Origin: Calditrichia bacterium
GTDB taxonomy: Bacteria; Calditrichota; Calditrichia; JAJRVZ01
Assembly: GCA_963777955.1 (NCBI GenBank)
Contig: CAVZSQ010000015.1
Span: 192,001 to 256,000, forward strand
Length of the DNA: 64,000 bases
Reading direction: 5' to 3'
Made by a program: the position numbers and the translations under genes
Part shown: one piece after another, positions 4,350 through 61,893 of the stretch
Layout of the letters: every line of letters starts with the position of its first letter
Position numbering within the stretch: position 1 is the stretch's first letter
The notes under the pieces: generated by a model
Database searches by the model: none
What the model saw: the letters and a program-made list of their open reading frames with translations, nothing else
What the model was told of the DNA's origin: nothing

Positions 4350-5750
4350 TTATTTATTGGTTATGGACAGTTGTTTTAATTTTCTGCACAACCATTCCCT
4401 GCTGATTCCCGCCTCCTCGGCGGTCTTTTTCATATTCCAGTTATGCTTATTCAGCAGTTCGGTGAAGTATATTCTGTTGAATTCGTCAAGGGCCTTCGGA
4501 TGTTTGCTCTGCAAAATCGCATCGATCTCCCTGTGTCCGGTTATCCGGTTCCGGTTATGAAACTTGCGCTGTTGTTTGAAGCGTAAATCGGATGGATGTA
4601 TTATATTTCCGGTACAGAATACGAAAGCATCTTCAATGATATTCCTTAATTCACGGACATTTCCGGGAAAAGTATAATTTTTCAACTGGGCCAGGGCCGG
4701 ATTAGAAAGCACCAGTTGTTTATTGCGCTGGGTATTGAATTTTTCGAGAAAAAATAAAGCCAGCGGTTCAATATCTTCCGGGTGTTCACGCAGGGGCGGA
4801 ATGGTGATTTTAATGACGTTCAACCGGAAAAAAAGGTCTTCCCGGAATCTGTTACGATGTACGAGTTGTTCGATATCCCGGTTCGAGGCAGCCAGGATCA
4901 TGACATTGACGCGGATGGGGCGTTTACCGCCGATACGATAAATTTCTTTTTCTTCAAGTGCCCGCAGCAACACTCCTTGCAGCGGCATGGGCAGTTCACT
5001 GATTTCGTCCAGGAACAAAACACCTTCATGAGCCTGTTCGAATTTTCCCTGCCGGCTGGCATAGGCTCCGGTGAAAGCTCCCCGCTCATGCCCGAATAAC
5101 TCGCTTTCCAGGAGATTGTCCGGAATCGCAGCGCAGTTGATCGGTATGAAGGGGGCATAATTGCGTTTACTCAGCATATGGATAGTCCGGGCAAACAGGT
5201 CTTTACCGGATCCGCTTTCTCCTTCGATTAAACAGGTCGCATGGGCGTCCTCGGCGATCTTCAATACCTTGCCCATCAGTTCCTTGATTTGCCTGGACAG
5301 GCCGATTATCTGGTAGTCGTTGAATTGCTGGCGCACGGTCTGGCGCAATATCTCATTTTCAATGGTCAGATGCTGGAGTTCTTTCTTTCGTTTAATCAGA
5401 TTTTCAACGCGGATCATCAATTCATCGAGAGTGAATCCCTTGACAGCGAAATCATCGGCACCTGCCTGTATGGTGGCAACCGCATTTTCCACCGACTCAT
5501 ATGCAGTCATAGCCAGAATAAGCGGCCGGTACATTTGATTGCGGGCGCATTTGATTACCGCTAAACCGTCATTTGCTTCGGGAAACATCAGATCGATAAT
5601 CACTGCATCGAATTCATCAGTTTCAATAAAATTAAGAGCTTCCTCTTTGGTATCAGCGGTTATGATTTCGAGCCCCTCCTGTTCCTGCAAATGAAAGCGG
5701 ATACCTTTGAGGATCGTCTCGTCATCATCACCAATAAGAATCCGGTACAT
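4350..5750 (-). CDS. NtrC-family sigma-54-dependent response regulator (receiver + AAA+ + Fis-type HTH)
   Basis: Receiver (ILIGDDD...IIDLMFP), Walker A GESGSGKD, intact GAFTGA, Walker B LFLDEI, FPGNVRELRN, C-terminal HTH NMKKTAEEAGISREWLCRKL. Confidence 0.95.
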   Translation of the reverse strand: MYRILIGDDDETILKGIRFHLQEQEGLEIITADTKEEALNFIETDEFDAVIIDLMFPEANDGLAVIKCARNQMYRPLILAMTAYESVENAVATIQAGADDFAVKGFTLDELMIRVENLIKRKKELQHLTIENEILRQTVRQQFNDYQIIGLSRQIKELMGKVLKIAEDAHATCLIEGESGSGKDLFARTIHMLSKRNYAPFIPINCAAIPDNLLESELFGHERGAFTGAYASRQGKFEQAHEGVLFLDEISELPMPLQGVLLRALEEKEIYRIGGKRPIRVNVMILAASNRDIEQLVHRNRFREDLFFRLNVIKITIPPLREHPEDIEPLALFFLEKFNTQRNKQLVLSNPALAQLKNYTFPGNVRELRNIIEDAFVFCTGNIIHPSDLRFKQQRKFHNRNRITGHREIDAILQSKHPKALDEFNRIYFTELLNKHNWNMKKTAEEAGISREWLCRKLKQLSITNK

Positions 5751-5777
5751 ATGTTCTACCTTATCTGCTGATACTCG

Positions 5778-7160
5778 TTAAACCGGTAAAATGACCTTGA
5801 AGATGGAACCAACACCCGGTTGGCTGTCAACCTGGATTTCACCGCCATGCAGGTTAATGGTTCGTTTTACCATGGCCAGGCCCAGACCGTGCCCCTGGTT
5901 TTTCATAGAAAAAAACGGGCGGAAAATTGCCTGCAATTTTTCCTTAGGGATACCGCAGCCGGAATCGCTGACAATAATATAAATCTTTCCGGACCATTCC
6001 GTGCTGACCGATACTTCGCCCTTCTCCCGGGTTGCTTCCAGCGCATTCACAATGAGATTTTTTAGCGCCATGAATAACAGGCGGGGATCACCGTTAAATA
6101 TAGGTATATTAGGATCATAATTTCTATTTTTTATTACAGAATTGTGGTTGCTGACCTCGTCGATTGCCTTATTGACCAGGGTGTTGATATCAATAGCTTC
6201 CCTGTTCAATTCTGACGCTTTAGCCATATCCAGAGTCCGGCGTACAAAGACTTCAACCTTTTGCGAAGCCGAGAGGATTTCCTCGCTGTATTTACGTAAA
6301 GGACTGTTTTCCTCTAATCGTCGATTCAGTCCGTCCGCCAGCAAGTGGATTCCGGTCAGAGGATTTTTCAGGTCATGAATTATGTACGAGGCAAATTCGC
6401 CGATCATGATCAATCCCTCGTGGGCGCTGCGCTCATTAATCAGATTCACCAATTGAGCGGATAATTGATTCAGCGAATGAATCATCTGGCCGATTTCATC
6501 TTCACCGTAACCGGTGATGGCCTGATCGAATTTACCCTGGCCATAGGCCCGGGCCAGATTAGAAACAGCGGTAATCGGTTTAACCACCCGGCGGGCCAGA
6601 TAATATGAAAGAATTATACTGAAGATAATGGCCAGCAAACCTATACCGGCAATGGTACTGAAGAGTCCGGTAAACAGATTCTCAGCCAGATATTGAATGC
6701 GGACCGTACCGATTCGTCTATTCAATTGCAGCACGGGTACATAGGTTTCCCAGACAGTTTGATCGCGCTCATCGGTCAGACGCATGAGTTGCAGTTTGTC
6801 TGTCTGCATCGCCTGCACAGTTAATGAATCGCTACAGGTAATACCGCGTTGGCCGGGATCATCGGCGGCAATGACTTTTCCGCTGGAATCCAATAATACG
6901 ATGGATAAAATATCCCGGCTTTCCATCATGCTGTCGATCAATAACTGAATCACGGCATAGTCATCGAGCAGGATGGCATTTAAACTGGTATAGGCCAGAG
7001 TTTTAGCTAAACGGAATGCTTTATCTTCTGCCTGTTTGCGTATCGTATTCTGCTGAAATAAATAGATGGCCATGGAAATCAGCATAATAATCAATGCGGT
7101 CAGACCGGCAAAATAAAGGAAAAACTTCGAGCGCAATTTCAGCTTTTGCCAGATATTCAT
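5778..7160 (-). CDS. Membrane sensor histidine kinase (2 TM, periplasmic Cache-like domain, HAMP, HisKA, HATPase)
   Basis: H-box IIHDLKNPL, N-box KNLIVNALEA, G1 DSGCGI, F-box IFRPFFS, G2 GHGLGL; HAMP KPITAV...DEIGQM. Confidence 0.95.
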   Translation of the reverse strand: MNIWQKLKLRSKFFLYFAGLTALIIMLISMAIYLFQQNTIRKQAEDKAFRLAKTLAYTSLNAILLDDYAVIQLLIDSMMESRDILSIVLLDSSGKVIAADDPGQRGITCSDSLTVQAMQTDKLQLMRLTDERDQTVWETYVPVLQLNRRIGTVRIQYLAENLFTGLFSTIAGIGLLAIIFSIILSYYLARRVVKPITAVSNLARAYGQGKFDQAITGYGEDEIGQMIHSLNQLSAQLVNLINERSAHEGLIMIGEFASYIIHDLKNPLTGIHLLADGLNRRLEENSPLRKYSEEILSASQKVEVFVRRTLDMAKASELNREAIDINTLVNKAIDEVSNHNSVIKNRNYDPNIPIFNGDPRLLFMALKNLIVNALEATREKGEVSVSTEWSGKIYIIVSDSGCGIPKEKLQAIFRPFFSMKNQGHGLGLAMVKRTINLHGGEIQVDSQPGVGSIFKVILPV

Positions 7161-7165
7161 GATAT

Positions 7166-8659
7166 TTAATTGTGTTTATTCAATATAACTGAATTAAAGT
7201 CTAAAATTTGATATGGTGACATGGATATATGCTTGATCCTTTCTGAATCTACTGCGAAATGCGGTATAACATGGTCCAGAAAAACTGCCGGCGTCTCGGC
7301 CAGAATTATCGAGACGATTTCTTTGTAGATTTGATTTCGTTCGTTCATGTCATATTTAGTCTCGGCCAGGTCTAATAAACTATCGACCTTGGAATTATAA
7401 TACTTCAGTGAATTCGCCGGAGATTTCGAATGGAACAGTGTCCATAAAAAATACCAGGGATCGCCGATTATATCGCTGTCATAGGCGTCAAAAAACATCT
7501 GTGCACGATCCGACATAATTGCGCCTATATGTTGAGGCCAGTTTTCGGATTCTTCGGTCTGCAGATATATTCCCGAAGTACGCAACTGTGCTTTTAATAG
7601 TTCAATCCAGGTATGGCGGGAACTTTTATTGGATAGCAAGAAAAAGCGGGTAACCAGGTTACCCTGAAATCCAGCTTCCTTGAACATCTTGCGGGCGAGA
7701 GCGAGGTTCTGGCCTGCCTGGACCGCTGTCCCTAAATTATAAATGGGCGGTAGCGGTCCCACGGCTGGAATTGCATTCCCGCGGTTGGAGTTATAAACCA
7801 GCCGAGGAATATTCAAGGCATATAAAATAGCTTTACGTATACGGGGATCGTTAAAAGGGGCCGCCCGATTATTGAAGCCAATAAAAATTACGTTTAAGGG
7901 CTTATTCGACACATAGTCTATCTTGCCGGTCCATTTCAACCGGTCGATGATCGATCCTGAAATAAGATAAACAATATCTACTTCCCTGTCCTCAATCGCA
8001 TAGGCTGATGATTCATAGTTGCTGTACAGAATGAATTCAATCTTTTTTACCTGTGATAATTTCTGCCAGCATTCCGGATTCTGTTTGAGGATTATTCTGG
8101 TACTGCCTTGCTGCTCATGTATAAAATAAGGGCCGGTTCCGTTACGGTTTTTATTTTTTTCTGTCATTGGCGATTGAATCAGCATGACATAAGGCGAACA
8201 CAGCGCATATAAAAACGGAGCAAAATCATTCTTTAACTGTATTGCAAAAGTCAGGGAATCAATCACGGCTACCTTTTTAATCCGGCCCTGCAGTAACCAA
8301 TTACTTTTTTCGCTGCGGTAGCGTTCTATGCTGTAGAGAATATCATCCACACTCAGCTGATGCCCGTCCTGGAAACGGACATCAGGCCTGAGTGTGAAAC
8401 GATAGATATTACTGTCAGGATTGACGGTCCAGCGCATAGCCAGATTGGGTAAAATAGTCTGGTAATCTGAATCCAACCGTAACAGGGTTTCATAAATCTG
8501 GCTTTGGATTTGCACATCATAAACCCCGTCATGATAGACCGGGTCAAATCCGTGTGGCATCTCCTCGATAGCCATGCGGATAGTTTCCACATCTGCGCAT
8601 GTCCAGGCCAGGACACTACTGCTAATAAATAAAAATATTTTCGTTATTTTTACTTTCAC
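7166..8659 (-). CDS. Family-5 (OppA/DppA/NikA-like) extracellular solute-binding protein, no permease genes adjacent
   Basis: FDP, IYETLL, PNLAMRW, FTLRPDVRFQDG, NGTGPY, PFNDPRIRKAI, Y.NSKVDSLL motifs; N-terminal signal ending in a possible lipoprotein Cys (AWTC). Confidence 0.92.
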   Translation of the reverse strand: MKVKITKIFLFISSSVLAWTCADVETIRMAIEEMPHGFDPVYHDGVYDVQIQSQIYETLLRLDSDYQTILPNLAMRWTVNPDSNIYRFTLRPDVRFQDGHQLSVDDILYSIERYRSEKSNWLLQGRIKKVAVIDSLTFAIQLKNDFAPFLYALCSPYVMLIQSPMTEKNKNRNGTGPYFIHEQQGSTRIILKQNPECWQKLSQVKKIEFILYSNYESSAYAIEDREVDIVYLISGSIIDRLKWTGKIDYVSNKPLNVIFIGFNNRAAPFNDPRIRKAILYALNIPRLVYNSNRGNAIPAVGPLPPIYNLGTAVQAGQNLALARKMFKEAGFQGNLVTRFFLLSNKSSRHTWIELLKAQLRTSGIYLQTEESENWPQHIGAIMSDRAQMFFDAYDSDIIGDPWYFLWTLFHSKSPANSLKYYNSKVDSLLDLAETKYDMNERNQIYKEIVSIILAETPAVFLDHVIPHFAVDSERIKHISMSPYQILDFNSVILNKHN

Positions 8660-8721
8660 CTACCAACAAATATTTTTAAGTATACACGACTATCATTTTA
8701 CTAATGCTGGAGAGCCTGTTT

Positions 8722-8841
8722 CTACTCAATCGTACGTGCGGCTATTCTCTGACATTGAGCCAGCACTTGTGGTGTAAAAGTAACGAACATGAAAAGCAGA
8801 ATCCATGCTTTTTTGATCCGGCGAAATAATTTCTTGTACAT
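8722..8841 (-). CDS. 39-aa small secreted peptide / putative RiPP or autoinducer precursor (not in ORF track)
   Basis: AAGGAGG RBS (8847-8853) 5 nt before ATG; MYKKLFRRIKKAWILLFMFVTFTPQVLAQCQRIAARTIE*; basic n-region, hydrophobic h-region, P-x-V-x-A cleavage-type site; lies between the radical SAM and binding-protein genes on the same strand. Confidence 0.8.
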   Translation of the reverse strand: MYKKLFRRIKKAWILLFMFVTFTPQVLAQCQRIAARTIE

Positions 8842-8877
8842 ATAAACCTCCTTGTTTAGATGGGTTAAAATGTTAAA

Positions 8878-10273
8878 TTAATTTTTGGATATCTTCAGCA
8901 GTTGTCTGCTAAAATTATTTCTAAGTCCGGCTGCAGGTCTGCTGTGCGACCGGTTTGAGAGATTTTTTTTCCAGCCGGAAAATTTCTTATAAATTTTATT
9001 TTCCAGCCGGGCCAGTTTCAGGCGCCAGGCGGTCAATTTTTTCAGACGAAAATCGTAGCCGTCGTACCAGTGATCAGAGGTTAACAGACCCGCCTGCTTA
9101 TATTGTCGGTAAGACAAACTGCCCCGGTACAATTCCAATCGTTCATTGATGGAAATCCTGCAATTCTTACTGTTGAAATATTTTTTCTGGACCATGAATA
9201 ACACGAAGTACTGTTTGATCAGATCGCGCAGGCGGGTATAAGCGTCAGCCAGGATCACCGAGACGATACAATCAATTTTCAACCGCTTTAAAGTGATCAA
9301 GGCCTTCAGATTCTGCCGTACCGTGGTTCCCTTGCCAAAACGGTTCAGTTGATCCTGATCGAAAGACTCAACCCCCAGAAAAACACGTTGTAAACCTGAT
9401 CTTTTAAGATGTATCAAGACCTGGCGATCGATTGAATCCACCCGGCACATCATTTCAAAACTGACCGACAGGTTCCGCCGGGCCAGTTCGGCGGCCAGAA
9501 TTTCGGCACGTTGACGGTTGTGTACGCCGCGGGTTAAGAAATTATCATCATTCAGAATGAAATAGGTGCAGCGATAAGTTCTGGCCAGGTGCTCCAGTTC
9601 ATCTACAAATTTTGCGATGGAACGGCTGCGCCATTTTTTACCCGGACTGCTGGTGTAAAAAGAATTGATGTCGCAAAATGAACAATTCCCCCAGCAACCC
9701 CGCGAAGCATAAACCCGCAGGTGACCTGTTTTTTTAATCAGCCTGTCGGCATATTTGCGATCGACCATGGGCAGACTGTCCAGATCGTAAATAAGGGGCC
9801 GGGGAGGATTATGCCGCAACTGCCCATTAAGACTGATATGAAATTCCCGGAATCCCGGTCAGAGGTTTATGGCCCCGACCTGCAAGGGAATACATCAAGT
9901 CCAGCAGGGTATACTCCCCTTCTCCACGTACAATAAAATCGATGGCAGGTACATTTTTTAAAAGTTCATCGGCATGAAAAGTTGGGAAATATCCACCAGC
10001 TAGCACAGGTCCGCTGAAACCGGTCTGTTTTATCTGTTGAATCAAGGACAGCCCCTGCTCTTTAGTCTGATCCAGCATGGAAATCCCAATAGATTTTGGT
10101 TGTATGTGACGCATTTTTTGTATGACAGCCGGGATATCCAGATCTTCCAGTACCATATCCAAGGTGTCAACCTTGAAACCGTATTGAGTAAGAAAGGCCT
10201 TCAAACTGGCAATACCCAGATGTTCACTGATAACATCGCTCTTAACACCAGGATGAATTAACAAGAGATCCAT
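8878..10273 (-). CDS. B12-binding domain radical SAM enzyme (class B methyltransferase-like); one gene split by a 1-nt frameshift near 9830
   Basis: N-part has a cobalamin-binding domain (HLGIASLKAFL, IGISM, GGYFPT, DFIVRGEGE); C-part has ASRGCWGNCSFC (CxxxCxxC), DDNF, RVD, FLGVES. Removing one base gives ...GISYQLNGQLRHNPPRP. Likely start ATG at 10273 after AGAGGGA RBS. Confidence 0.9.
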
Positions 10274-10304
10274 AATAATCCCTCTAAAAGATGAAAAATA
10301 CATA

Positions 10305-10320
10305 TGCCATATTCATGCCA
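10305..10320 (-). promoter_or_regulatory. Sigma-54 (-24/-12) promoter for the radical SAM operon
   Basis: TGGCATGAATATGGCA: GG-N10-GC spacing, close to the TGGCAC-N5-TTGCW consensus, ~30 nt upstream of ATG 10273; a GAFTGA activator lies downstream in the same gene cluster. Confidence 0.8.
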
Positions 10321-10349
10321 TTTTATTGTAAAAACGACAACTCCAATAA

Positions 10350-10362
10350 TATGAAGTAGTTA
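10350..10362 (+). promoter_or_regulatory. Possible IHF binding site between enhancer sites and the sigma-54 promoter
   Basis: TATGAAGTAGTTA, one mismatch to WATCAANNNNTTR, at the position typical for sigma-54 promoters. Confidence 0.4.
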
Positions 10363-10405
10363 GCCAATCCAGGCTTTCGAGCATAAATTATAAGATCAAA
10401 AAAAG

Positions 10406-10488
10406 TGTGAACGATCGATCAAAAAAATTGACCGATCGTTCACACTCGGTATGAACAATCGGTCAAAAAATGAGAACAATCGTTCACA
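10406..10488. promoter_or_regulatory. Four tandem 18-bp palindromic sites (consensus TGTGAACGATCGTTCACA), probable enhancer (UAS) array
   Basis: tgtgaacgatcgatcaaa (10406-10423), attgaccgatcgttcaca (10427-10444), tatgaacaatcggtcaaa (10450-10467), tgagaacaatcgttcaca (10471-10488); spacing 21, 23 and 21 bp. Confidence 0.8.
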
Positions 10489-10828
10489 CGGATGGGAAGT
10501 CCCGCACTTTTTTGCAACTTTTTTGAGATAAAGCTGAATATACGATATTAGAAATTCGGCTCTTCACTGATATTTTGAGTTGTTTTTGCAGTTCAAAGAA
10601 TGCTCTCGGTCAATTCCAGGGCAAAATAATTCTTGTATATAAATATTTAATAAACAATATCTTATATATTTATTGTCTTATCGGCGATTTAAAAATTCCG
10701 GGAAAAATTAAAACGATTCAATGGAGCAGATATCTATCCGAAGGGCTTAAAAAAAATTATAAATTTTTTTCAAAATATTTAATAAAAATTAGATCAATTT
10801 AATCGCTTAACTTCCGGTAAACTTAAGC

Positions 10829-10850
10829 AGTGTGAACTTTTGTTCACACT
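10829..10850. promoter_or_regulatory. Fifth copy of the TGTGAAC-N4-GTTCACA palindrome (distal site, or purM terminator hairpin)
   Basis: agtgtgaac-tttt-gttcacact perfect 9-bp inverted repeat with the same 18-bp core geometry. Confidence 0.55.
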
Positions 10851-10898
10851 AGCCGACGTGAGACACAATTTATCGGACAATTTGATGGATTAGCCGGC

Positions 10899-11889
10899 TT
10901 AAATAACCCCGCCAATGAGATAAGGTTGGAACTTGTCGGCTTTAATCAGCCTGTAAATTGCCTCAGTATCCACTGCCCTGACAATAAAGACCAGGCCGAT
11001 CCCCAAATTAAAGGTATTGCGCATATCTGATTCAGGGACCTGGCCCAGACGCTTTATCATCTTGAATATCGGAGGCCAGGACCAGGCCTGCCAATCTACC
11101 TGCAGTGATAATCCTGCCGGTAACAGGCGTTTGGTATTACCTATGATGCCACCACCGGTAATATGGGCTATCCCTTTAACCTGAACCCTTTTTCGTACAG
11201 ATTGGATCAGGTGAAGATAACTCAAATGGACCTGTAACAATTCAGCGCCCAAAGTACACCCCAGCTCGGGAATATAACTATCCACTTTTAATTTTTTAAG
11301 CAATATCCTGCGGGCCAGGGAATAGCCATTGGTATGTAAACCGCTGGAATTAACTCCGACCAATACATCTCCCCTTTTTATTTTTTTACCGTTAATGATA
11401 TTCAGCTTTTTCTACCACACCGATAATGGTACCCGACAGATCATATTCGCCCTGGCGGTACAGGTCGGGCATCTCCGCTGTCTCGCCGCCGATCAGGGCG
11501 CAATGATTATACTTACAACCGCGTACAAAACCTTTAATTACATTTTTAAAAGTTGCTGTTTCTAATTTTCCGGTGGCGAAATAATCCAGGAAAAAAAGCG
11601 GCTGCGCTCCGCCCACGGCAATATCGTTGACGCAATGATTTACTAAATCCTGGCCGATCGTATCATGTTTATCCATCAGGATAGCGACTTTTAATTTGGT
11701 CCCCACGCCATCCACGCTGGAGACCAGCACCGGTTGCCGGTACATACCCTTGTTGAAACTATACATTCCCCCAAAAAGACCCAGTTCAGTCAATACCTGG
11801 CGGCTATAGGTGGAATGAACCATTTTTTTAATCTGTTTTATGGCCAGGTTCCCCTTTTCGATGTCAACACCCGCCTTACGATAAGTCAT
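10899..11889 (-). CDS. purM: Phosphoribosylformylglycinamidine cyclo-ligase (frameshift near 11395)
   Basis: MTYRKAGVD, DGVGTK, GQDLVNHCVND, GGETAEMP in one frame; SSGLHTNGYSL, AHITGGG, TFNLGIG in the next. Confidence 0.95.
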
Positions 11890-11913
11890 TTTCACCTGCA
11901 GTATCCTCAGCAA

Positions 11914-15667: not shown

Positions 15668-17933
15668 TCAGAGCAGGGCTTTCAATATTTTCTGTGCGCT
15701 GGCTTTTCCATACAACCCCGCTTCAAGCGGCGGTCCGATACAGGAAGGACAGCCATTCTCACAACTGCAGCTGCCGATGTGATCGAAGACGGTCTGGAAG
15801 ATCAGGTTATCCAGATTATAGACTTTTTTACTCAGTCCCACTCCACCCGGATACTTATCATAAACATAAATAGTCGGCTTGTTGGAGAATGGCGAACGAA
15901 CCATAGGTACCACGCTGATATCGTTCCGGTCGCACATAATATACAATGGTATCAGGTTTTGCAGAACATAAGCGATACCCTTAATGCCCTCCCCGATCAC
16001 CGATTCCTGAAAGTAGGGATCGGAGAACAGTTGTTCGGGAAATTCAAACCAGGCTGAGGTGGAATGCATTTCCATTTCCGGCAGAAAAATTCTACCCATC
16101 CCGACGTTCTCATGCGTAAAGAATTTTACTTTTTTAAAAGAGGTGGCCACGGTAGTAACCGCAACTTCACCCAGACATTTTTTATAGCGCCGGGCTATCA
16201 ACTCCTCCTGATCAACCTGCAATACTTTAAGATCGGTTTTGGCAATTGCATCCGTATAATAATCGCATTCGGTCTCGCTGACATAGGCTTTCTTGCCTTC
16301 CCAGTCCAGTTCGTTCACCTGGAACTGCCGGCTTTCATGCAGGTAGATTGCTTCCTTGTGGACTAACAGCGGAGCAGAAAACAGATCCACTTCACCAATG
16401 ATCCGGTTATTATCTGATTGATTGATGATGACCACATTATTGGGATTGGCATTGCGCAGGCTTACTTCATCCGCAGGAAAAACTTCCTGCATCCAGAAAT
16501 ATTTGCCCGTCTGTTTCTCTCAGGATGCGTTCATCACGGAGATACTGCAATAGTTTCTGGGTGGCATCGGTACCAAAATGTTCCTCGGTGGTAAACGGCA
16601 GTTCGAAGGCGGCACATTTAAGATGACTCATCATCACCAGCAAATTATTGGCATCGATATTGGCGGTTTCGGGATTTTTACCAAAAAAATAGGAGGGGTG
16701 CTCAATAATGTACTGATCCAGGGGTGCGCTGCTGGCCACCATTATTGAGACTGAAGTAGTCTGACGCCTTCCGGCTCGTCCGGCCTGTTGCCAGGTACTG
16801 GCAATACTGCCCGGATATCCGGATAGTATCGATAAATCAAGTTGACCGATATCGATGCCCAGTTCCAGGGCATTGGTACTGACGACTACCTGGATACTGC
16901 CATCGCGTAATCCGCGTTCGATCTCCCTGCGTTCATTGGGCAGGTAACCGCCGCGATAACCCCGGATTTTATTGGGTTCAATTTTCAAGGATTTGGCAAC
17001 TTCCTTAAGATAGGTTACCAGAATTTCAACATTAAGCCTGCTGCGGGCAAAGACGATGGACTGTATGCCTGTCGGCAGGAACAGCCGGACTATTTTTCTT
17101 ATTTCATTCAGTACCGAATTGCGTATGCCCAATTCCTTATTTACCACGGGGGGATTATAAAAAATAAAATGTCTTTCCCCGCTGGGAGCGCCGTTTTCAT
17201 CCACAAGTTCCACCGGTGCTTCGATAACTTTCGCAGTTATTTCTTCCGGATTGGCAATAGTAGCAGAGCAACAGATAAAGACGGGATGACTGCCATAGAA
17301 TTCACAGATACGCTTCAACCGCCGCAGCACATTGGCCAGATGGCTGCCGAAAATACCTTTATAGGAATGTATTTCATCGATGACGATATATTTTAAATTC
17401 TCAAACAATTTGATCCACAAGGTATGATGAGGCAATATTCCCTGATGCAGCATATCGGGATTGGTCACGACTATATGCCCGGCCGAGCGGATGGTCCGGC
17501 GCACATCTGCCGGTGTATCTCCATCGAAGGTATAGCACAGAATGCGCTCCCCTAATCTTTCGATCAGATCGTTTAATTCATGCACCTGATCCTGGGCCAG
17601 GGCTTTGGTCGGAAACAGATACAGCGATCTTTGTTCGGGATTTTTCAGCAAATTGCACAGAACGGGCAGATTATAGGTCAGGGTCTTGCCCGAAGCGGTG
17701 GGGGTGACGACCACAACATTCTTACCCTGCTGAATTTTCTCAAAAGTCAGGACCTGATGCCGGTAAAGTGCAGAAATTCCACTTTGTTTCAAAACCTGAA
17801 TAACCTTATCCGGAATAGAGTCCGGAAAGGGGGCATAAACGGCTGACTGGGCGGGAATAGTTTTCCAGGAAGTTACATTGCGTGTGAATTCAGGTTTGGA
17901 GCCTAAATATTCAATTAATTGGGCAAGGTTCAT
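15668..17933 (-). CDS. YprA/MrfA (Hrq1/SftH-like) DEAH helicase with C-terminal DUF1998 Cys domain; frameshift near 16490
   Basis: TPTASGKT, PTKALAQDQ, DEIH, SATIAN, QQAGRAGRR; C-terminal CDRNDI...YPGGVG...CSCENGCPSC. Confidence 0.92.
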
Positions 17934-32987: not shown

Positions 32988-35091
<2,104 letters not shown>

Positions 35092-39734: not shown

Positions 39735-39749
39735 GTAAGAAATCGATTT

Positions 39750-42700
39750 ATGTATCTGTCAAAACTGGATATCTTCGGCTTTAAATCTTTTGCGCAAAAG
39801 ACACATCTTAAATTCAACGACGGTATTGCCTGTCTGATCGGACCCAATGGTTCCGGTAAGTCGAATATTGTCGATTCGATTCGCTGGGTACTGGGCGAGC
39901 AGAAGACCAGCACCCTGCGTACCGATCGCATGGAAAGTGTCATCTTTAATGGTACGAACAGCCGTTCACCCCTGGGTATGGCCGAGGTATCCCTGACAAT
40001 TCAAAACACTAAGAACATCATTCAGAGTCCCTTCAGCGAAGTTGTTGTCACCCGCAGGCTCTACCGTTCCGGGGAAAGTCATTACCTGTTGAATAAAATG
40101 CCCTGCCGGCTGAAAGATATTCAGGATTTATTCATGGATACCGGTATGGGCGCTGATTCCTATTCCGTGATCGAATTAAAGATGGTGGAGAGCATTATCA
40201 GCGAGAATCCCGGTGAACGCCGGCATTTATTCGAAGAAGCAGCCGGTGTTACTAAATATAAATTCCGCCGTAAATCCGCATTGCGCAAACTGGAAACAAC
40301 CCAGCAGGACATGAGTCGTATCAGTGACCTGATCGCCGAAATCAACCGGACGGTCAACAGTTTATCGCGCCAGGTCGGCAAAGCCCGGCATTACCTGCGC
40401 TATAAAGATGAATTGAAAAAAGCGGAAACAGACCTGGGCCGTTATCGCTTCGGGCATTTCAATACCGAAGTAAATAATTTGCAGCAGCAACTGGATGAAG
40501 TGCACCTGATCAAAGAAGACACCAGTCAGCAGATTACACTTGAGGAAGCACTACTGGAGGATTATAAACGGGAAATTATTCAGAGTGAAGAGAACCTGAG
40601 AAAATTGAATGATCAGTTGTACCAACTGGATGAAAAAATTCATCAACTCAAGGAAGAGGAAGCCGTAGCCACTACCCGTAACCTGGCCATCCATGAAAAT
40701 ACAAAACGCAATCATGCCGATATTGCTGAATATACCCAGAAGATACAAAACGGCCAGCAACTCCTGCTGGAAGCACAGCAAACGTTGGGCCGGATCCGGA
40801 CGGATTTCGACCAGGCGGCTCTGGGTTTTAATAATCTGGAACAACAGTACCAGAAAGATGCAGAACAGTTGAGGCAGGAAAAACAGAGTTTAGATCAGGA
40901 AAATAAAACCATCCGGGTCCAGGACGAGGAGATGCGTACCCAAAAGGAGTTGCTGCAGGAGAAAAGTTTTCAATATAAAGTGAACCAGGATAAGGTACAT
41001 GCGATTAATCTCGAGGATCAGCACAAAATCACGCGGGAAAAAGAAATCGATTTGCGCTTGAGTGAATTGAATACCACGAAAACGACTCAACAGCAGGACC
41101 GGGACAAGATCCTGCTACAGATTAATTCTGCAGGCGAGCAACTGAACTCACTGGCGGAAAATATTACCCGGCAAATCGAACAACTCCATAAACTTGAAGT
41201 GCAACTGGAATTCACCACTACCCGCATCCATTTTTTTGAACAAATAATATCCAAGTATGAAGGACATGACCAGAGTACCCGTCTGGTTATGAATCAGCGT
41301 GCTGATTTTTCCGGAGTGCATGGTCCCCTGGCGGATTTTTTACAGGTGGATGACCGCTATCGGCCGGCGTTCGAAGTCTGCCCTGGGGGACATGCTGGAC
41401 TATCTGGTAGTCGATGATGTGCAGACGGCCAAAACACTCCTGCGCCATATCGAAAAAGGAAAACAGGGGCGCATCACCTGTATTCCGCTTAATCTGGTCA
41501 GTAAATTTAAACTAAGCGAAAACTATATTCCCGGACAATTGCAGGCATTGAGTAACCTGCTGCAGTGTCCTGAAATATATCTGAAGATTTTTAAGATTCT
41601 TTTGGGGGATATGGTTCTGGTCGCAGACCTGGATGAAGGTATTGCCCTGGCTGAACAGTACCCGGAATTACGGGTGGTGACCCACTCGGGCGAGATTATC
41701 GCCCATTCGCATCTGATTTCCGGGGGGACAAAAACGAGTGATGAGTTTTCGCTGTTAGGCCGCCGCGAACAACTGGCCAAAGTACGGCAGGAAAAGTCGC
41801 AGTTGGAGACAGATCACGAGAAAATCCGTACCGGCATAAGCGAACTGAACGACAGGCAGGATCAGCAGCACCGCGATCTGGCCGGCCTGAATTCACAACT
41901 CGAACATGTTCTGGCGCAGCTAAAAGATCTGGAGCGCGATGAATTACAGTTGCAGTATGAAAAGGATTTTATCCGCCAGAATCATGATAAACGCAGTTTT
42001 GATCTCGCCGGTTTGCAGCAGCAGCTGCAAATTCTGCAAACTGAAATCGGACAGATGACAGAATCCTGCCAGGGACTGCAGGACAGTTTACAGGTTAAGG
42101 AAAACCAGTATAGTCAGGCCCTGGCCATATTGGAAAATAAAAACAACGACCTGCAACTGGCGGCTCTGCAGGTCCAGGAGGCCAGGCTGCAACTGGAAAC
42201 GCAAAAAAACCAGATCAACAACCGCCAGGCGGATATTGTACGTACCGAACAGACGATAACTGAATTGAATGAACAGATCCGGAAACGGCAGGTCGAAATC
42301 GAAGAGATGCAGCTGCAGCTGCAGCAACTGGCCGAACGTAAATTACAACTGGAACAGGAAAAAATAGGTATCTGGCAAAACCGCGACCAGCTGGAAAAAG
42401 AAAAAGACAAAATTGCCCAGCAGTACCATGAACTCAAGGATAAAATTTTAAATCTGGAAACTCAGATCAAGCGTTTTCGTAAACAACATGATACATCGCT
42501 GGAACGTTCACGCCAACTTGAACTGAGCATCCAGGAATTGCAGATGAAATCGTCAGCGCTCAAGGACCGTTTAAAGGAAGAATATGAAGAAGACATCAGC
42601 GTGGGCATCGCTTTCGACAGTCTGAACGTTGAAGAAACTCAGCAGCAGATCGAGCATTTAAAATTGAAGATTACTCAACTGGGCCAGGTCAACCCCCTGG

Positions 42701-43272
42701 CGGTAAGTGAATATGACAAGGAAAAAGAACGATTGGATTTTTACACTAAACAATATAATGATCTGCTGGAAGCAGAAAAAACCCTGCGTGAGACGATTAA
42801 AAAAATAAATATCACGGCCCGTAATCAGTTTATCGAAACCTTCAATCAGATCAAACAGAATTTTGAAGGTGTTTTTAAGAATTTTTTCGAGAACGGTGAA
42901 GGCACCCTGGAATTGCAGCAGGAGTCTGACCCGCTGGAGGCGAATATCGAGATCCTGGTCCGGCCCAAAGGCAAGCGCTTGCAAACCATTGCCCTGTTAT
43001 CCGGCGGTGAAAAAACGTTGACCGCTATCTCCCTGCTTTTTGCAATTTATCTTGTAAAACCAAGTCCATTTTGTATATTAGACGAAATAGACGCTCCCTT
43101 GGACGATGTGAATATTAACCGTTTTACCAACGCCCTGAAAGAATTTTCCAAAGATACTCAGTTCATTGTGGTCACCCATAATAAACGAACCATGGAAGCG
43201 GCCAGCACTCTTTATGGTGTTACCATGGAAGAAGAAGGACTTTCAAAATTAGTTTCTGTCAAATTTAACTGA
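39750..43272 (+). CDS. smc: Chromosome segregation protein SMC (frameshift near 41375 in the hinge)
   Basis: GFKSFA, GPNGSGKSN, FEEAAG, long coiled coils, hinge, LSGGEK, PFCILDEIDAPLD, VVTHNK. Confidence 0.96.
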
Positions 43273-60680: not shown

Positions 60681-61857
60681 TCAATTTTTGACATTTTGTT
60701 TCCGCGCGATGATTTCCCGGGCATTTTTACGGGCCTGCTGATCAGCGCTGATACAATCATCCAGGGTGCGGATTTCCTGCGCCTGATGAGCGGCCAGTAC
60801 CGTTTCAATAATATGGGGTATATCAAGAAAACCGATCTCATGGCCGAGAAATGCAGCGACAGCGATTTCATTAGCAGCATTCATGGCCGCGGGATAGGTC
60901 TTGCCCGCTTGCAGGGCCTGATAGGCCAAGGCCAGACAGGGAAATTTTTCAAAATCCGGCGGCTCAAAGGTCAAAGGCTGCATGCTTGTATAAATCCATT
61001 TGTAATTGCTTCATTGGCAGGCGTTCCGGATAACTCAGAGCATACTGGATGGGAATTTTCATATCCGGTACACCCAGTTGTGCCTTAATTGACTGATCGG
61101 CAAATTCAACCATTGAATGAATGATCGACTGCGGATGAATGACCACCTCGATTTTTTCAGCCGGGACATTGTACAGCCAGTGGGCTTCGATCACTTCCAG
61201 CCCTTTGTTCATTAAAGTAGCAGAATCAATGGTTATTTTTGCTCCCATCTTCCAGTTAGGATGATCCAGGGCCTGTTCCGGTGTTACTTCTCTGAGCTGC
61301 ATTCTGTCTGTATTTCTGAAAGGACCGCCGGATGCAGTCAGGATAATACGTTTAATTTCATTTTGTTCCTCTCCGCGCAGACACTGCCAGATTGCACTGT
61401 GCTCACTGTCAATGGGTAATAATTGCACCTGCTGACGTTGCAGCAGGGTCTTGATTAGTTGCCCCGCAACCACCAGTGTTTCTTTATTTGCCAGTGCTAT
61501 GGCACTACCATACTGAATGGCCTGGATCGTCGGTCGAAGTCCTGCGAAACCGACAAAAGCATTTAAGAAAATATCCGGACGACAGACCTGTAAAACCTCG
61601 TCCAGTCCTTCGCTTCCGTACTTTAATATCGTCCGGCCGGACTGCCTGATCTCTCCGCACTGTCTGAAAGCGTCAAGATTATAAATGACCGCATATTCCG
61701 GCGTAAACTGTTTAATTTGTTCGAACAGCAGGTCGATGTTCTGATTGGTAACCAGGGTGCTTATCCGGAATTTATCCGGATGCGCCCGTACGACTTCAAG
61801 TGTACTTTTCCCGATAGAACCGGTTGAACCGAGTAGAAATATTTTTTTCATTATCAT
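60681..61857 (-). CDS. dxr: 1-deoxy-D-xylulose-5-phosphate reductoisomerase (frameshift near 60975)
   Basis: [51 protein letters not shown]-terminus LTFEPPD..KFPCL..NAANE in the next frame. Confidence 0.96.
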
Positions 61858-61893
61858 GTTCCAGTATGACCATGGGATAGCAGCGCTGATCCA

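Follow-up and report, generated by a model that had tools for sequence, protein, structure and literature searches.

Peptide autoinducers have been described as the quorum-sensing mode of Gram-positive bacteria and small molecules as that of Gram-negative bacteria (as outlined in PMC8895600). The window analysed here, a 64,000-nucleotide stretch of a Calditrichia bacterium contig, contains between plsY and purM a five-gene block on the minus strand; it encodes a cobalamin (B12)-dependent radical S-adenosylmethionine (SAM) enzyme, a 39-amino-acid peptide, an orphan family-5 solute-binding protein (SBP), a membrane histidine kinase and an NtrC-type activator. From its sequence and its relatives, the operon is a real, conserved system and probably a variant of peptide quorum sensing. 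The initial annotation of the locus did not recognise the combination as a described system, and we likewise found no description of it in the literature searched, with supplements and genome-mining tables outside that search.

Precursors of about 40 amino acids with basic and hydrophobic N-termini are known from the Phr/Rap and SHP/Rgg systems, in which Opp-family binding proteins take part; Opp permeases bring these signals into the cell, where cytoplasmic RRNPP proteins read them. The present system differs on both counts, as no OppB-type permease was found in the carriers tested (see below) and the reader would be a membrane kinase. No RRNPP gene was found in the operon by Pfam; the rest of the genome was not searched. 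In streptococcal RaS-RiPP loci, the peptide after modification serves as an output rather than as the signal. The Calditrichota host is one that we take to be diderm.

The agrBDCA system of staphylococci has a 40–50-amino-acid precursor with an N-terminal amphipathic leader and a hypervariable block that gives rise to specificity groups (described in PMC10482373). Like agr, the Calditrichia locus unites a predicted maturation enzyme, a precursor, a kinase and a regulator in one operon with predicted positive feedback on its own promoter. The parts are different: AgrB is a membrane peptidase that makes a thiolactone, whereas here a B12 radical SAM enzyme is present and no AgrB-type gene lies in the operon; AgrC binds the peptide itself, whereas here the variable receptor would be a separate family-5 SBP and the kinase is conserved; and AgrA is a LytTR regulator, in contrast to the sigma-54 activator found here. 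As far as its genes can tell, the operon works like agr or com, yet it fails membership of both the agr and the Phr/SHP–RRNPP systems.

The SBP–kinase–sigma-54 route is shared with the LuxP–LuxQ–LuxU–LuxO chain of the Gram-negative Vibrio, which also has an SBP as kinase co-receptor and a sigma-54 activator at its end (as presented in PMC8050422 and PMC8895600). Its signal, unlike that proposed here, is the small molecule autoinducer 2 (AI-2), with neither a precursor gene nor a radical SAM enzyme. The kinase LuxQ is of the hybrid type, and what the chain controls is not the sensor operon but the Qrr small RNAs. SBP–kinase pairs are established, including a family-5 case, CBP–ChiS, in which an SBP_bac_5 protein controls the kinase, and AioX–AioS, in which a signalling SBP acts on an sCache-like kinase; the ligands there are environmental (chitin oligosaccharides and arsenite), and the account of these pairs in PMC8050422 describes no allelic cassette. 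A B12-binding and radical SAM protein beside a small precursor, with C-methylation likely, is known from ApyD, TIGR03975 and NF050148; unlike the enzyme here, ApyD has a RiPP (a peptide made ribosomally and then modified post-translationally) recognition element (RRE), as well as P450 and MNIO neighbour genes (according to PMC11002830); the present locus has no such genes either.

A conserved operon in Calditrichota

The initial annotation had described five co-oriented, tightly spaced genes headed by a sigma-54 promoter and a palindromic array and ending in an NtrC-type activator with an intact GAFTGA. Every part is present where it had been placed, and the intergenic gaps from enzyme to activator are 36, 62, 5 and 27 nt. 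Upstream to downstream, the features are as follows.

10831–10848: distal perfect palindrome TGTGAAC-N4-GTTCACA, a probable activator site; also a terminator-like hairpin after purM
10406–10488: four degenerate 18-bp palindromes with spacings of 21, 23 and 21, a probable enhancer for the operon's own activator
10305–10320, minus strand: sigma-54 (−24/−12) promoter TGGCATGAATATGGCA, from pattern match and conservation; rpoN is in the genome
9827–10273, minus strand: B12-binding half of the radical SAM gene (PF02310, E = 5e-18)
9831–9833: one extra base relative to related strains, causing a frameshift; four of four contigs from three other DNA runs lack that base
8878–9819, minus strand: radical SAM half (CxxxCxxC) of the cobalamin-dependent enzyme (PF04055; model and fold search)
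8722–8841, minus strand: 39-amino-acid peptide open reading frame (ORF) with a GGAGG ribosome site, a probable signal precursor (30 distinct homologues)
7166–8659, minus strand: orphan SBP_bac_5 protein (DppA/GsiB-like) with an N-terminal lipobox-like Cys, a probable receptor
5778–7160, minus strand: membrane histidine kinase, sCache_3_2–HAMP–HisKA–HATPase_c (Pfam domains)
4350–5750, minus strand: NtrC-type activator, REC–Sigma54_activat–HTH_8, with GAFTGA intact and a clade-specific recognition helix, SREWL

The distribution of these genes was profiled across 86 Calditrichota genomes, which are incomplete and include kin. A genome scan with two short patterns (80 of 185 matches kept) and a metagenome scan, in which the matches listed are a lower bound, cover the matches listed and do not settle the range beyond Calditrichota. 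The enzyme clade is tight: 45 of the 50 listed protein matches are at least 51% identical, after which identity drops to 34–37%. The 21 genome-scan loci with at least 46% enzyme identity (among those 80 of 185 matches) carry the label Calditrichota, except two labelled only 'bacterium'. In the phylum profile, the enzyme occurs in 23 genomes, with fragments in two more, and the peptide in 21, of which 20 have a full-score enzyme and the remaining one an enzyme fragment at a contig end. The SBP clade reaches a high score in 19 genomes and is fragmentary in five more; it was not found in G056 and G090, whose enzyme contigs stop just after the peptide or the enzyme. Genomes that deviate from the full gene set mostly coincide with contig ends.

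Gene order was compared across 38 core loci (enzyme identity of at least 46%, 4 duplicates). The peptide gene, with a ribosome site, lies directly behind the enzyme in 28 of these and behind an inserted receiver gene in 3, one of them cut by a contig end; the remaining 7 stop at a contig end or gap. The SBP, kinase and activator come next in most core loci where the sequence reaches, and none of the 26 more distant enzyme loci has matches to any of the three. Homologous loci thus keep the small ORF, the order enzyme–peptide–SBP–kinase–activator, and the promoter with its palindromes, so that the check the initial annotation had set for its own reading went in its favour. At locus L049, different genes lie downstream, among them a gene of AraC-type helix-turn-helix (HTH) class behind the peptide, and the sensor genes are on a separate contig.

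Other loci show further arrangements. In G003, a related kinase without a periplasmic domain (349 amino acids) stands beside a related activator (L352, 1372–2977); the enzyme, peptide and clade SBP were not found in this genome, which is 80% complete. Through decay or assembly error, the SBP gene is broken into many pieces in G004 (L021, 7100–8490) and into three in G002 (L013, 6472–7964). Locus L044 (8060–8453) has two tandem peptide genes between two receiver-only genes, the second copy spanning an assembly gap. Between the receiver and peptide genes, a variant lineage has a conserved ORF of 8 codons that comes with a separate ribosome site (L044, about 7960–8000; L049, about 1930–1960).

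Joint variation of the peptide and the binding protein

The 30 distinct peptide homologues are all 38–40 amino acids long, and in eight close pairs the differences number 45, 25 and 115 at codon positions 1, 2 and 3, respectively, with a third-position bias in all eight. Because of this fixed length and bias, comparison across the family indicates that the ORF is a real, selected coding gene; the alternative that it is the frameshifted start of a longer gene was rejected, as all 30 homologues stop at 38–40 amino acids. Residues 1–12 form a basic amphipathic pattern (net charge of +4 to +6), residues 15–23 are hydrophobic and the tail is variable. Ser/Thr21 and Ile/Leu/Val38 are each present in 30 of 30 peptides and Phe17 in 27 of 30; no conserved Cys or acidic tail was found among the 30. 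We found no paralogue of the peptide in this genome, and a protein atlas search returned no usable match.

The peptide had been annotated as secreted, Phr-like and Sec-exported. The window peptide does have a plausible signal-peptidase site, but a crude (−3,−1) rule finds some site in 23 of the 30 peptides, none in 7 and no common position, so Sec export is not established. The N-terminus, an amphipathic basic helix, resembles the AgrD leader more closely. By the prepilin leader rule, a prepilin-type leader was rejected: Phe17 is often preceded by Leu, Lys or Pro, and Glu is missing from position +5.

The SBP is DppA/GsiB-like by its nearest solved structures; one of its solved relatives is SapA, described as having a part in antimicrobial peptide resistance. 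Of 26 SBP sequences, 24 have a Cys among their first 45 residues, and the clade shares the motifs IDRLKW and NRGNA. The role of an ordinary transporter subunit was rejected because no OppB-type permease (PF19300) was found in five of five carriers tested, compared with 11 of 14 controls. By its gene context, the SBP is probably a sensor component rather than part of a transporter. Its coupling to the kinase is very likely, and there is a good case, from their shared variation, that the peptide is its ligand.

The clearest evidence for a matched pair comes from three closely related loci, L039, L047 and L112. Between L047 and L112, nucleotide identity is 98.6% upstream of the operon and 97.8% in the enzyme gene; the peptide genes agree at 46 of 48 positions over codons 1–16 and at 40 of 69 over codons 17–39, with the best breakpoint at codon 15–16, and the SBP genes are 58% identical. 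As proteins, the enzymes are 99% and the SBPs 49% identical. Between L047 and L039 the breakpoints are at peptide codon 16 and near SBP residue 400; past the second, nucleotide identity is 91% in the SBP end and 87.5% in the kinase gene. Here the periplasmic sensor domains of the kinases are 98% identical and the SBPs 57%. In the swap, the C-terminal part of the SBP travels together with the kinase and may therefore be the surface that touches it. L039, L047 and L112 share the last five peptide residues despite their different SBPs; a Phr-like C-terminal pentapeptide as the sole signal therefore cannot explain the swap and was rejected.

Trees of the enzyme and the SBP for 18 loci (duplicates and partial SBPs left out) disagree in the same way. 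The enzyme tree groups L047 with L112 (95/90), whereas the SBP tree groups L039 with L112 (100/99), and the peptides in the trio follow the SBP tree (L039/L112, 87% versus 72% and 69%). Across 21 non-duplicate loci, once the enzyme is controlled for, peptide residues 17–39 are more alike where the SBPs are more alike (r = 0.40, permutation P = 0.0005), in a Mantel test that counts kin as independent and so overstates the correlation; with the enzyme, once the SBP is controlled for, r is −0.10. In agr, a hypervariable block likewise joins peptide and receptor, and the corresponding pattern is clear here in one trio of loci. On this comparative evidence, the peptide and the SBP are a matched pair that is exchanged together between close strains.

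The enzyme and the control of the operon

The enzyme carries the B12 motifs GxSxL, GG and GE together with CxxxCxxC, the features of a cobalamin-dependent radical SAM enzyme. Its cysteines, GG and GEGE are invariant in 37 of 37 sequences, and the Ser of GxSxL is present in 35. Its model (pLDDT 85) matches best the fold of OxsB, followed by TsrM, MgmA, CysS and TokK, at about 15–22% identity. None of the operon proteins matched an NCBIfam family at cut-off (the radical SAM half scored 57 for TIGR03975, with a cut-off of 750, and 58 for NF050148, with a cut-off of 282), and the protein atlas returned only generic B12/radical SAM clusters for the enzyme. Most enzymes of the class are thought to be methylases, and TokK-type methylases have a Trp at the lower cobalamin face and a Cys-X3-Cys-X2-Cys-X-Trp motif (as reported in PMC9204698). 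The family described here has GxSxLD instead, and the second residue past the last Cys is Ile in all 37 sequences; methylation is still possible. Because TokK's two diagnostic tryptophans and the RRE are missing, the reaction is not readable from motifs. The earlier appeal to TsrM as a modifier of ribosomal peptides does not hold, as TsrM methylates tryptophan (PMC9204698).

The enzyme gene adjoins the peptide gene in every locus that can be read through, and the link is kept in rearranged loci. From this association, we consider it fairly probable that the enzyme acts on the peptide. One near-identical enzyme serves different tails, and its target should therefore be a peptide position that all variants share. 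In locus L224 (3958–7529), the enzyme and the peptide are duplicated in tandem (68% protein identity) but the SBP is not. The first of the two peptides is 36 amino acids long and ends differently, and the first copy showed no enhancer sites ahead of it. Sister enzymes at 36–42% identity have PqqD genes in their clusters in both of the two loci scanned; the one sister cluster scanned fully also has a SPASM enzyme, an ATP-binding cassette (ABC) transporter and a small protein rich in Cys. At L051, L126 and L128–L131, a RiPP-like cluster that appears to be unclassified combines one or two sister B12 radical SAM enzymes with an ABC transporter, a SPASM enzyme, PqqD and a Cys/Gly/Ala-rich protein of 180–190 amino acids.

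A B12 radical SAM gene does head the operon, with both domains present, as had been annotated; a frameshift within it had been overlooked. In this assembly, the gene lies in two frames, with the B12 half ending at 9827 and the radical SAM half running from 9819 to 8878. The likely start is the ATG at 10273 behind AGAGGG, where homologues begin MDL or MDI, rather than the mechanical ORF start at 10303. The break is most likely an assembly indel rather than a true frameshift: the extra base is missing from related contigs, a homologue with 91% identity is one unbroken protein of 464 amino acids, and the genes ligA, dxr, smc and purM are interrupted as well. Each of these four, purM (10899–11913), ligA (32988–35091), smc (39735–43272) and dxr (60681–61893), is present as two ORFs, as is a DEAD-box/MrfA-type helicase gene (15668–17933); indels are frequent in the assembly.

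The promoter TGGCATGAATATGGCA is the sole match to TGGCAYRNNNWTNGCA in the window, against a chance expectation of 0.09. The match is weak by itself because 9 of 100 shuffles contained one; its real support is conservation, with a GG-N10-GC-like site (by a loose pattern) in 29 of the 35 homologous loci that include upstream sequence. The palindromes at 10406, 10427, 10450, 10471 and 10831 account for 5 of the 7 window matches to TGTGAAC-N4-GTTCACA at up to 3 mismatches, where 1.9 were expected and 7 were reached in 1 of 100 shuffles; they too are kept upstream of homologues. A weight matrix built from other loci finds paired sites genome-wide only at this promoter and none in the reversed genome. 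Of the 86 genomes, 14 contain the exact tandem pattern TGAA-N6-TTCAYA; the enzyme is present in 13 of these, the remaining one has a 92–95% identical kinase and activator, and the reversed-pattern control gave 0. The degenerate sites in the window miss this strict pattern, yet they top the weight-matrix scan of their own genome. Compared with the CRP consensus, the spacing of the palindrome is two bases longer, and a CRP site was rejected. Palindrome pairs at 10403–10447 and 10828–10851 (minus strand) score as terminator-like hairpins and could stop read-through from purM.

With a REC–AAA+–HTH activator containing GAFTGA, rpoN in the genome, a −24/−12 promoter and upstream sites, the locus has the features of a sigma-54 enhancer-binding two-component system. 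The recognition helix SREWL is conserved, except that one lineage reads TRQWL or SRSWM. In that lineage the site is TGTAAAC-N4-GTTTAC, found in 1 of the 86 genomes; helix and site differ together, in a single event. In all likelihood, given the conservation of both, the activator binds the tandem TGTGAA-N6-TTCACA palindromes.

A proposed circuit, its alternatives and its reach

An autoinducing circuit based on a modified peptide, with specificity types, is the best reading of the locus and a probable one. Basal transcription from the sigma-54 promoter would yield the 39-amino-acid precursor, which the basic amphipathic N-terminus would hold at the inner membrane. The enzyme would modify a position common to all variants, most likely by C-methylation, with Ser/Thr21, Phe17 and Ile38 as candidates; host export and proteolysis would then free a fragment from residues 17–39. 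The orphan family-5 lipoprotein would bind this fragment in the periplasm, its conserved C-terminal part switching the Cache-domain kinase. The kinase would phosphorylate the NtrC-type activator, which would bind the tandem sites and turn on its own operon and, in relatives, also a receiver-only protein, PAS hybrid kinases and secreted proteins. It is fairly probable that the signal passes between cells. A bolder form of the proposal, in which a diderm runs peptide quorum sensing built wholly from parts unused by Gram-positive systems (a cobalamin radical enzyme as maturase, an exchangeable family-5 SBP as allele-specific receptor and a sigma-54 activator in charge of a regulon) and gains pherotypes through a swap of tail and receptor, has somewhat less than an even chance. 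The earlier interpretation as a whole is thus supported in part: the operon, its synteny and its sites stand and gain new support from the joint exchange of peptide and SBP; Sec export lacks support, the TsrM analogy falls, and modification of the peptide, its binding by the SBP and dependence on cell density are inferred.

If true, the circuit would give a mostly uncultured diderm phylum a peptide signal with specificity groups, add a receptor design in which an exchangeable binding protein sets the specificity and the kinase stays constant, and tie signalling to cobalamin chemistry. The B12 radical SAM enzyme comes with 30 natural candidate substrates. L039, L047 and L112 offer three natural peptide–receptor alleles on near-identical backgrounds, which makes the central claim directly testable.

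Several points weigh against the circuit as proposed. The clear mosaic is limited to one trio, which may include chimeric assemblies (to judge by record titles, two of the three stem from a single sampling campaign); in other close pairs the SBPs diverge only gradually, and the correlation across loci is inflated by kinship. The shared last five residues of the trio, noted above, and the want of a signal-peptidase site common to the family count on the same side, as does the fact that the operon showed neither an exporter nor a protease gene. The nearest solved SBPs bind dipeptides, glutathione and heme, so that a long peptide ligand is not predicted. A complex prediction for the SBP (residues 23–495) with the peptide (10–39), from their own alignments, gave a score of 0.02 (mark, 0.32), with controls not folded, and counts neither for nor against binding. 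OxsB, the nearest solved enzyme, acts on a nucleotide, and no PqqD match, and hence no RRE, was found in either enzyme half or in the operon. The enzyme lies outside the swapped cassette, whereas the agr processing gene agrB is partly inside. Release into the periplasm would bring the peptide first to the producer's receptor and so weaken density sensing. In this genome, a weight-matrix scan found no target promoter beyond the operon's own.

The strongest alternative is a self-sensing switch with the same chain of parts, in which the modified peptide stays in the periplasm of the producer, reports whether a reaction that needs cobalamin and an iron-sulfur cluster can run in the cell (B12 supply, anoxia) and locks the state on. 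The receptor and the kinase sensor are periplasmic by their domains and the lipobox-like Cys, no exporter gene was seen in the operon, and the targets in relatives include PAS hybrid kinases, all of which would suit such a switch; a private sensor, however, gives little reason for matched peptide–receptor alleles to be swapped between close strains, and we regard this explanation as unlikely.

It is also quite unlikely that the peptide is a membrane regulator of the SBP–kinase complex, after the model of MgrB-like feedback, with the SBP sensing a small molecule, possibly made by the enzyme, as in LuxS/LuxP/LuxQ. Enzymes that are 99% identical would give one and the same metabolite, although the SBPs that go with them share 49% identity; the kinase is 94–98% identical while the peptide changes; and enzyme and peptide are duplicated without the SBP. 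These observations stand against the fixed length, hydrophobic core and single conserved helical face of the peptide and its lack of a conserved cleavage site, which would fit a membrane regulator, as would the DppA/GsiB-like nature of the SBP and the closeness of the enzyme to OxsB. A modified peptide that is an antibacterial or surface-active product, with the SBP as matched immunity or sequestering protein and as inducer input, on the model of bacteriocin-type autoinduction, would draw on the cationic, amphipathic peptide, on SapA among the relatives of the SBP and on the fact that toxin–immunity pairs are also swapped as cassettes, but it is very improbable given that the cationic part is the conserved leader and not the variable part, that the peptide is usually present as a single copy, with no dedicated exporter observed, and that the distal targets are regulators and secreted proteins.

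Under the autoinducing circuit, the regulon would reach further in relatives than in the window's genome, where the receiver gene is missing at this locus. Extra site clusters in relatives precede a receiver-only gene behind the activator, after which a PAS hybrid kinase often comes; in two genomes they precede NarL-type regulators. G007 has site clusters on eight further contigs, four with a sigma-54-like site 67–79 nt away; they face beta-helix proteins, a PAS kinase and a DUF6443 protein.

In G001, of the same genus, a lone activator (60% identical) lies behind tandem sites (L344, 1041–2936), where a further site and a sigma-54-like promoter face a gene for a bifunctional ATP sulfurylase/APS kinase. 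This genome also has a 92–95% identical kinase–activator pair at a contig start; the lone activator is therefore a paralogue, and its interpretation as an orphan or loss-of-function remnant was rejected. In G027, the block of enhancer and promoter is duplicated 4.4 kb upstream of the operon (L340, 946–985 and 5359–5398).

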